64,000 nt of DNA, taken from Eledone cirrhosa. Its lineage: Eukaryota. Positions 7,020-7,410 of the stretch are shown here, in pieces (positions within the stretch are counted from its first letter, which is position 1; every line of letters starts with the position of its first letter). A program made the translations under genes and the position numbers. The notes under the pieces were generated by a model. The model saw only the letters and a list, made by a program, of their open reading frames with translations, did no database searches and was not told where the DNA came from. The stretch lies in contig CAXHJY010000869.1 in NCBI GenBank assembly GCA_964016885.1, positions 1-64,000 on the forward strand, written 5' to 3'.

Positions 7020-7410
7020 TATTTGATAATATACTGTATGTTTGATTAAAAACATTTTGAAGACCATTCGCTATGAATTTAAAACAGTGACTATGTAACT
7101 TACTTATTCTCGGCAAAAACAAAGGGGAGTAATCCGCAGTCCTGTTTCTCGCTAGTTAGCAGTTAACAAAACTACTTACCCCTTCGCTTCTGCCGAGAAT
7201 TACCGAAGATGGATTCTTATAGAATTCCAGTGATGTTTAAGAGCTGATTAAACAAAGCGATTGCCGGTCCAGCAAAAATTAGGTATTAGTATTGCTGAAA
7301 TAGCGATGTATACATGAATGTATGTATAGTATATTTGGCAATATACCGTATCTTTAATTAAAAACATTTAGAAGACCATTCGCTATGAATTTTAAAGTAG
7401 TGACATAGTC
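7020..7410 (-). mobile_element. Retrozyme-like ~312-bp repeat (1+ tandem unit) with degenerate HHR at 7106-7200
   Basis: 7022-7095 repeated at 7334-7408; inverted homology to 31477-31835. Confidence 0.65.

Follow-up and report, generated by a model that had tools for sequence, protein, structure and literature searches.

A mutated hammerhead repeat from an abundant ~315-nt family in Eledone cirrhosa DNA and its probable insertion by a Penelope-like element

Results

Copies of a ~315-nt hammerhead repeat in the window

The analyzed window, a 64-kb stretch of Eledone cirrhosa DNA (64,000 nt), is microsatellite-rich animal DNA. Three dispersed copies of one repeat family, here called A, B, and C, were located in it by BLAST and nhmmer. 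The monomer of this family is non-coding and 312–319 nt long (~315 nt). Copy C had been missed in the first-pass annotation of this DNA. The features were as follows.

7009–7423, minus strand: copy B, about 1.3 units of the non-coding 312-nt monomer; its type I hammerhead is decayed
6994–7084, minus strand: 3' copy of the copy B direct repeat (conserved 3' domain), period 312
7306–7396, minus strand: 5' copy of the copy B direct repeat, partner of 6994–7084
7179–7200, minus strand: 5' arm of the copy B distal helix I, holding all three G of the G-U pairs
7106–7127, minus strand: 3' arm of the copy B distal helix I
7129–7175, minus strand: hammerhead domain of copy B
7405–7423, plus strand: inverted cap at the 5' end of copy B, a putative fold-back at the small hairpin 7397–7415
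6965–7005, no strand: (TA)n tract at the 3' end of copy B, the likely target
7450–7481: second TA/CA tract near copy B
31468–31835, plus strand: copy A, 1.15 units with an intact core (U3-A8, GUC), flanked by (TA)n on each side
32667–32849, plus strand: copy C, 5'-truncated, ~0.6 units, core intact (U3 at 32733, GUC)
32843–33780, plus strand: Penelope-like fragment fused to copy C, 5'-truncated and broken

Copy B had been described as an inverted relative of the copy at 31.5 kb with a direct repeat of its own at a period of ~312 nt, and both descriptions were correct. In a search within the window, the minus strand of copy B matched copy A at 69.6% over 355 columns (E = 2.7e-32), and a global alignment of the two copies had 251 of 335 aligned positions identical. 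The direct repeat of copy B spans 91 nt with 85% identity at a spacing of 312 nt, and that of copy A spans 49 nt with 98% identity at a spacing of 319 nt. Copies A and C, which are related through flanking sequence, shared 173 of 210 aligned positions. The 3' arm of the distal stem is deleted in copy C, and (TA)n borders its 5' side at 32634–32666. Each of the three copies carries one ribozyme. Since a tandem of at least two consecutive ribozymes was found in 0 of 3 window copies, copy B would be a monomer derivative.

No open reading frame of at least 70 amino acids passing the complexity filter was present inside copies A or B. The GC contents of the 312- and 319-nt monomers were 0.36 and 0.35, and their size and GC content lie within the range of metazoan non-LTR retrozymes (~150–450 bp, under 45–50%). 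The best Rfam match of copy A was Hammerhead_HH9 (RF02275), covered over the full model length with E = 0.0046 and 20.9 bits, below the gathering threshold of 52. Copy B had no Rfam match. In an Rfam scan of the whole window, the best 150 of 369 matches were microsatellite noise, all below the gathering threshold, and included no ribozyme.

Public sequencing runs (four of the nine listed) were compared with positions 7008–7432 at a likeness of at least 80%. Related pieces numbered 4836 in the contigs of X1 and 3743 in the reads of X7, a reduced-representation library whose read counts are not locus counts; 13 and 3 pieces were found in two other organisms (organisms B and C, respectively). A 30-nt conserved pattern gave 0 matches in metagenome contigs and viral contigs.

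Hammerhead core and decay of copy B

Core positions are given in the hammerhead numbering. Copies A and C have the U3-A8 core, the GUC triplet, and 12 of 12 core-helix pairs of a type I hammerhead. The ribozyme of the family is built from a 6-bp proximal helix I, a 3-nt bulge, a 4-bp helix II, and a real helix III. In copy A, the helix II loop reads CAAUAA, helix III is palindromic, and cleavage is predicted after position 31667. Self-cleavage of the family ribozyme is a prediction from its sequence.

The core of copy B had been reported as mutated with U3-A8 retained, and this was confirmed by TTGTTAA (U3 U4 G5 U6 U7 A8 A9) at 7169–7163 and GAAAC at 7148–7144. Proximal helix I pairs 7170–7175 with 7129–7134, helix II occupies 7162–7149, G12–A14 occupy 7148–7146, helix III occupies 7145–7136, and position 17 is at 7135. 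The core is damaged at A6, where position 6 is now U, and the extent of the damage had been understated. The triplet is GCG instead of GUC, which breaks pair 15.1–16.1, and the first helix II pair (10.1–11.1) is a C-A mismatch. Copy B thus lacks the intact core and NUH triplet of a type I hammerhead. Because of the A6 change, the GCG triplet, and the helix II mismatch, copy B is very unlikely to cleave by established hammerhead chemistry, and its ribozyme is likely dead.

Among the best 40 of 108 differences, with the helix II base (7162/7149) and the G-U positions lying outside them, the relatives of copy B kept A6 in 48 of 48 X7 reads and in 59 X1 contigs (depth 1042/1059). They also carried U16.1 (44/59; 54 contigs), C17 (45/59; 54 contigs), C at position 2.1 pairing with G1.1 (55/64; 61 contigs), and a pair-keeping base at 7352 (1004/1042). 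The damage of copy B is therefore private, since these relatives carry A6 and GUC. At least six private changes lie within ~50 nt of copy B, which agrees with the 15% divergence of its repeats. These sequences indicate that a B-like subfamily with an intact core (A6, GUC) and its own helix I sequence existed and that copy B decayed later.

Distal stem and covariation between copies

The distal stem had been said to differ in sequence between copies A and B and to pair in both. This proved right: on the ribozyme strand, the two arms of copy B pair without a gap at all 22 positions (19 Watson-Crick and 3 G-U pairs), and copy A forms 14 of 14 Watson-Crick pairs (31603–31616 / 31680–31693). The three G-U pairs of copy B are A-C mismatches on the opposite strand. 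The fold of the ribozyme strand had z = -7.37, equaled by 0 of 200 shuffles, and that of the opposite strand had z = -2.45, equaled by 4 of 200. The G-U pairs were considered as a sign of selection or of A-to-I editing and rejected, as 3 changes in 44 nt fit neutral decay at the divergence seen between the repeats of copy B; no excess of the A-to-I-like change was seen among the relatives in the best 40 of 108 differences.

Core pairs were counted by coordinate, and a MAFFT alignment of the ribozyme region misplaced helix III of copy B. Of the 24 positions that make up the 12 core-helix pairs, 9 differ between copies A and C, with 4 double changes, 1 pair-keeping single change, and 0 broken pairs (co-location p = 0.006). 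The same count gave p = 0.91 for A versus B and p = 0.71 for C versus B, with 2 of 12 pairs unpaired in each; these comparisons are non-significant because copy B decayed. Therefore, the structural covariation proposed earlier is real at the family level, and the comparisons with copy B do not carry it. In the 3' domain, three small hairpins each have one double change. Across four related sequences, 3 pairs had double changes, a number matched by 234 of 500 shuffles, and the covariation score was matched by 7 of 500; a set of this size has little power. In a by-eye alignment, the distal stems differ by ~2 double substitutions and 4 added pairs. Identity between A and B was lowest across the stem and ribozyme (60/100 columns, versus 101/137 and 77/115), with pairing kept. 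High variability with compensation and a U3-A8 core has already been described for Penelope-associated hammerheads (PMC4209133).

Insertion ends

The 5' starts were estimated from alignments at ~43 nt (B), ~124 nt (A), and ~214 nt (C) after the cleavage site, and the 3' ends at ~133 nt (B), ~167 nt (A), and ~117 nt (C). The earlier reading that the repeats of A and B start at different monomer phases was thus borne out. No end of the three window copies lies at the cleavage site. The three 3' ends fall within 50 nt, a clustering not significant alone (p = 0.074).

At its 3' side, copy B merges into (TA)n between ~6997 and ~7009. At its 5' side, the loop of the inverted cap reads ATA; its relatives read TAT and then onward into the monomer. 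The X7 reads differ from copy B at 7405–7407 (23/43, 24/42, and 26/42). Past 7404, monomer sequence continues in 719 reads and 99 contigs, so the 5' end of copy B is not a fixed end of the family. The cap is probably an inversion or fold-back.

Among the best 20 of 461 loose-end classes in the relatives, those with a (TA)n consensus lay at two points. The end at 7295 was found in 410 X7 reads, 78 X1 contigs, and 1 X4 contig (organism B), and its consensus is exactly the 3' end of copy A, which is the distal fixed end of the family. The end at 7309 was found in 403 X7 reads and 43 X1 contigs; some of these breaks may be alignment breaks in TA-richer subfamilies. The two points are ~28 nt apart, counting five bases missing from copy B, and are blurred by TA homology; consensus agreement at the loose ends was only 0.58–0.76. 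Both points together account for 813 loose ends, compared to 1170 reads covering 7313. The 3' end of copy C is ~20 nt short of the nearer fixed end. All three window copies touch (TA)n in a window that is itself very TA-rich, and the loose-end consensus was (TA)n in X1 and X7. Therefore, the 5' ends of the family vary and its 3' ends lie mostly at two set points. Two (TA)n-joined 3' end classes ~28 nt apart, variable 5' starts, and a partial tandem form the pattern of Penelope-type elements.

These ends bear on the earlier proposal that copies A and B show circular permutation. Free permutation was not supported, since the 3' ends pile up at two (TA)n-joined points, and variable 5' ends with two fixed 3' ends account for the different repeat phases of A and B. 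The annotation had named fixed ends shared by all copies as the finding that would speak against permutation; such ends were largely found on the 3' side (7295 and 7309), whereas the 5' ends were variable.

Three further sets of breakpoints were set aside. Read start and stop peaks at 7223/7226, 7280, 7356/7359, and 7045 were rejected as element ends and are likely library cut sites, because five of the six lie at AATT sites of copy B and the sixth lies where the relatives read AATT. Loose ends at 7280, 7356, and 7359 were AATT-site peaks too. Joints that go back by ~305–313 nt were not taken as proof of circles or multimers, as they are expected from the repeat of copy B itself.

Compared to the sequence upstream of the ribozyme, the 3' 100 nt had a read depth ~2–3 times higher. 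In the monomer, the 3' ~100 nt (31735–31821 in A; 7297–7385 in B) can form a closing stem and three hairpins in a cloverleaf-like arrangement. This domain had the highest read depth, and it may be the recognition site of the enzyme.

Penelope-like fragment fused to copy C

The fragment next to copy C encodes a CX4CxxC linker and, at the C-terminus, a GIY-YIG endonuclease, followed by a 3' non-coding part, and ends in (TA)n at ~33780–33841. Its endonuclease-like stretch covers 32843–33380. The Pfam GIY-YIG match had E = 3e-4 and 21.5 bits, just under the cut-off of 22.6. The protein had 491 relatives at E = 0.001 or better, the best being an Octopus bimaculoides record (50% identity, E = 1e-27); this one transposon protein suggests that the host is likely an octopus. 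The long relatives carry a YxDD motif that precedes the matched domain by ~250 residues (165 in one), and the C-terminal place of the endonuclease in the fragment depends on this motif. Pfam found no reverse transcriptase (RT) domain in nine relatives of the endonuclease fragment and one GIY-YIG hit. The linker points to a Neptune/Nematis type. By-eye inspection of the 3' part showed a minimal hammerhead-like motif of its own (~33587–33615).

Protein similarity begins at 32843–32849 and the match of copy C to copy A ends at 32849, so that up to 7 nt are common to both and no TA spacer separates them. Copy C and the fragment have the same orientation and lie as a pair inside one (TA)n tract (32634–33841). 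The simplest reading, toward which we lean by a small measure, is a single insertion with a template jump; the alternative is a later Penelope insertion at the 3' edge of copy C. A comparison of the monomer with the non-coding 3' part of the fragment gave no sequence link (score 20, reached by 73 of 100 shuffles) and so no sign that this fragment is the parent or helper of the family. An open reading frame for RT plus GIY-YIG was absent from copies A, B, and C, and only the neighboring fragment is endonuclease-like. At 51253–51303 (minus), 52 nt resemble the fragment's 3' end at 83% and are probably a very short second copy.

Other features of the window

Hammerhead-like motifs with C3-G8 or U3-G8 cores were seen at 16400 (+), 34021 (+), 45038 (+), 61555 (-), and ~33587 (+). 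Two of them have a long helix II and a palindromic ATATAT helix III typical of Penelope ends. A second repeat family was observed at 37840–38040 (-), 43950–44200 (-), 45780–46000 (+), and 62520–62750 (-). It forms a long near-perfect hairpin with ~60-bp arms running directly into (TA)n, one arm being missing at 62.6 kb, and shows matched changes between copies. A LINE-type fragment with a zf-RVT domain lies at 58353–58955 (-; Pfam E = 3.3e-7). A tandem array at ~39590–41590 contains ~30 copies of a 66-nt unit that is open in several frames. Near-identical stop-free stretches spaced by ~271 nt at ~20560–22420 suggest a tandem repeat, and the whole-window motif scan found no ribozyme motif there.

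Discussion

Proposed origin of the family

Copy B is probably an insertion, now mutated and likely inactive, of an abundant ~315-nt hammerhead repeat, likely copied into (TA)n by the RT and endonuclease of a Neptune-type Penelope-like element. From the structure and the ends, both read directly in the DNA, we infer the enzyme, the priming, and the form of the template. The RNA would fold as a hammerhead on a long stem with a hairpin-rich 3' domain. A Neptune-type endonuclease would nick the (TA)n target, and reverse transcription would begin internally in the RNA, from either of two sites within the 3' domain. Copying would then run toward the 5' end for a variable length, passing one unit in copies A and B and leaving a terminal repeat. 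The 5' end would join through TA microhomology in copy A or through a fold-back in copy B. Selection on RNA structure while subfamilies amplified would leave compensated stems, and copy B would have decayed neutrally since its insertion. A Penelope-like enzyme starts at two internal sites that define a 30–40 bp tail, and ribozyme cleavage is not required for this (PMC11167929). In Penelope elements, partial tandems, inverted 5' pieces, tails, and a (TA)n bias linked to the CX2-5CxxC linker have been described (10.1101/2021.04.23.441226).

Other routes were weighed against this one. If circular RNA had been entered at arbitrary points, each insertion would be another circular permutation, and copies A and B do exceed one unit, cross the cleavage site a single time, and start at different phases. 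The absence of ends at the cleavage site also means that the self-cleaved linear monomer was not the template, and RNA circles have been shown for coral, mussel, and axolotl retrozymes (PMC7229834). As circles, the monomers are well folded (z = -4.9 on each of the two sense strands, equaled by 0 of 60 shuffles), but this z includes the long stem and the antisense strands score -3.1 and -2.5. Head-to-tail transcripts of Penelope-type partial tandems would equally give lengths beyond one unit, and the 3' ends pile up at two (TA)n-joined places, which leaves entry at arbitrary points very improbable. Only free permutation is disfavored in this way. A circle entered at fixed internal start sites fits the ends and is compatible with insertion by a Penelope-like enzyme, and we give it slightly less than an even chance. 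A ligated circle and a head-to-tail transcript would give the same DNA, so the ends are no evidence for a circle, and repeat phases that differ between copies can count toward RNA circles only where variation of the 3' ends has been demonstrated.

The repeats could instead be left-over pseudo-LTRs (pLTRs), or solo ends, of an autonomous Penelope-like element, with no separate non-autonomous family. The family has the Penelope hallmarks of partial tandems, ends resembling tails, a 5' cap in inverted orientation, and (TA)n targets, the first U3-A8 cores to be described were those of Penelope-like elements in Schistosoma (PMC4209133), retrozymes are derived from such ends in 10.64898/2026.07.22.740005, and the higher depth over the 3' 100 nt is as 5' truncation would give. 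However, the unit in copies A and B stands head to tail with itself with no coding sequence between, in keeping with the lack of open reading frames noted above, and its ribozyme is canonical, unlike minimal Penelope motifs. Four other hammerhead-like regions of the window have no sequence relation to the ~315-nt family beyond TA runs. We consider this origin improbable. Only a little better placed is the view that the matched changes of the long stem arose by arm-to-arm DNA copying (template switching in a quasi-palindrome) rather than by selection on RNA structure. The stem of copy B is ~4 pairs longer than that of A or C on both arms, inside A/T runs in the by-eye alignment; a single event is the simplest account of such added pairs, and copy B has a fold-back cap at another hairpin. 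Nevertheless, double changes also occur in the short 4-bp helices of the three-way junction, where catalytic bases are fixed, and in the three separate small hairpins. Arm copying may account for a portion of the distal stem; it does not account for the core.

Relation to known elements

The reading as copies made by a Penelope-like enzyme places the family beside two known kinds of element. Like the metazoan non-LTR retrozymes (PMC7229834), it has a non-coding unit, a canonical type I hammerhead, a well-folded monomer, and thousands of related pieces; its GC content is 35% and its unit 312–319 nt, compared to 350–390 bp for the retrozyme of the mussel, also a mollusc (PMC7229834). In contrast to those elements, no tandem array is present among the three window copies (1.3, 1.15, and ~0.6 units), the core is U3-A8, and helix I is extended by a 14–22 bp stem. 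RNA circles have been shown for metazoan retrozymes (PMC7229834), whereas this family is known here from DNA alone.

With EN+ Penelope-like elements of the Neptune/Nematis type, the family shares the partial tandem, inverted 5' piece, (TA)n targets, and type I hammerhead (10.1101/2021.04.23.441226, PMC11167929, PMC4209133), as well as the U3-A8 core found in Schistosoma Penelope-like elements (PMC4209133). Its two 3' ends define a tail of ~28 nt, compared to the 30–40 bp printed for Penelope (10.1101/2021.04.23.441226, PMC11167929). Unlike these elements, the unit has no RT/endonuclease open reading frame, and its ribozyme is canonical rather than minimal.

Li, Clavereau, and Pollet described retrozyme "monomers" as non-autonomous Penelope derivatives (10.64898/2026.07.22.740005), and their case is alike in the dispersed monomers, the Penelope-like elements in the same genome, and the proposed helper. 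That work concerns mainly vertebrates, names no mollusc in the parts covered here, and argues from co-occurrence and pLTR homology. In our window, pLTR homology with the one Penelope fragment was absent, and it is the insertion ends and the fused copy that point to the helper. The family fits the view of retrozymes as non-autonomous Penelope-like elements (10.64898/2026.07.22.740005); it likely consists of retrozyme-like, non-autonomous, Penelope-dependent elements, a known kind. A description of an octopus retrozyme was not found in the literature searched, which held few subscription papers, and the family may already be catalogued.

Implications

Copy B itself is fossil sequence, and many animals are known to have repeats that bear hammerheads. 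The value of this family lies in its end pattern and in the fused copy C rather than in the flagged copy B. The end pattern bears on how animal retrozymes are mobilized, both on the enzyme that does so and on the template it uses. At the insertion ends of this family we see the two-site signature that in vitro measurements gave for a Penelope-like enzyme (PMC11167929), and copy C forms a fusion with a Neptune-type fragment. The papers on a retrozyme–Penelope link argue, in the parts considered, from co-occurrence and pLTR homology. A bolder reading, which we hold possible but rather unlikely, would make the family a large retrozyme lineage of cephalopods with a circular RNA, which a Neptune-type enzyme enters at two fixed internal sites of the conserved cloverleaf-like 3' domain; copy C and the Penelope fragment would then be one chimeric insertion, produced when the enzyme switched from its own RNA to retrozyme RNA. 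If this is true, the chimeric insertion would identify the helper of animal retrozymes by direct genomic evidence.
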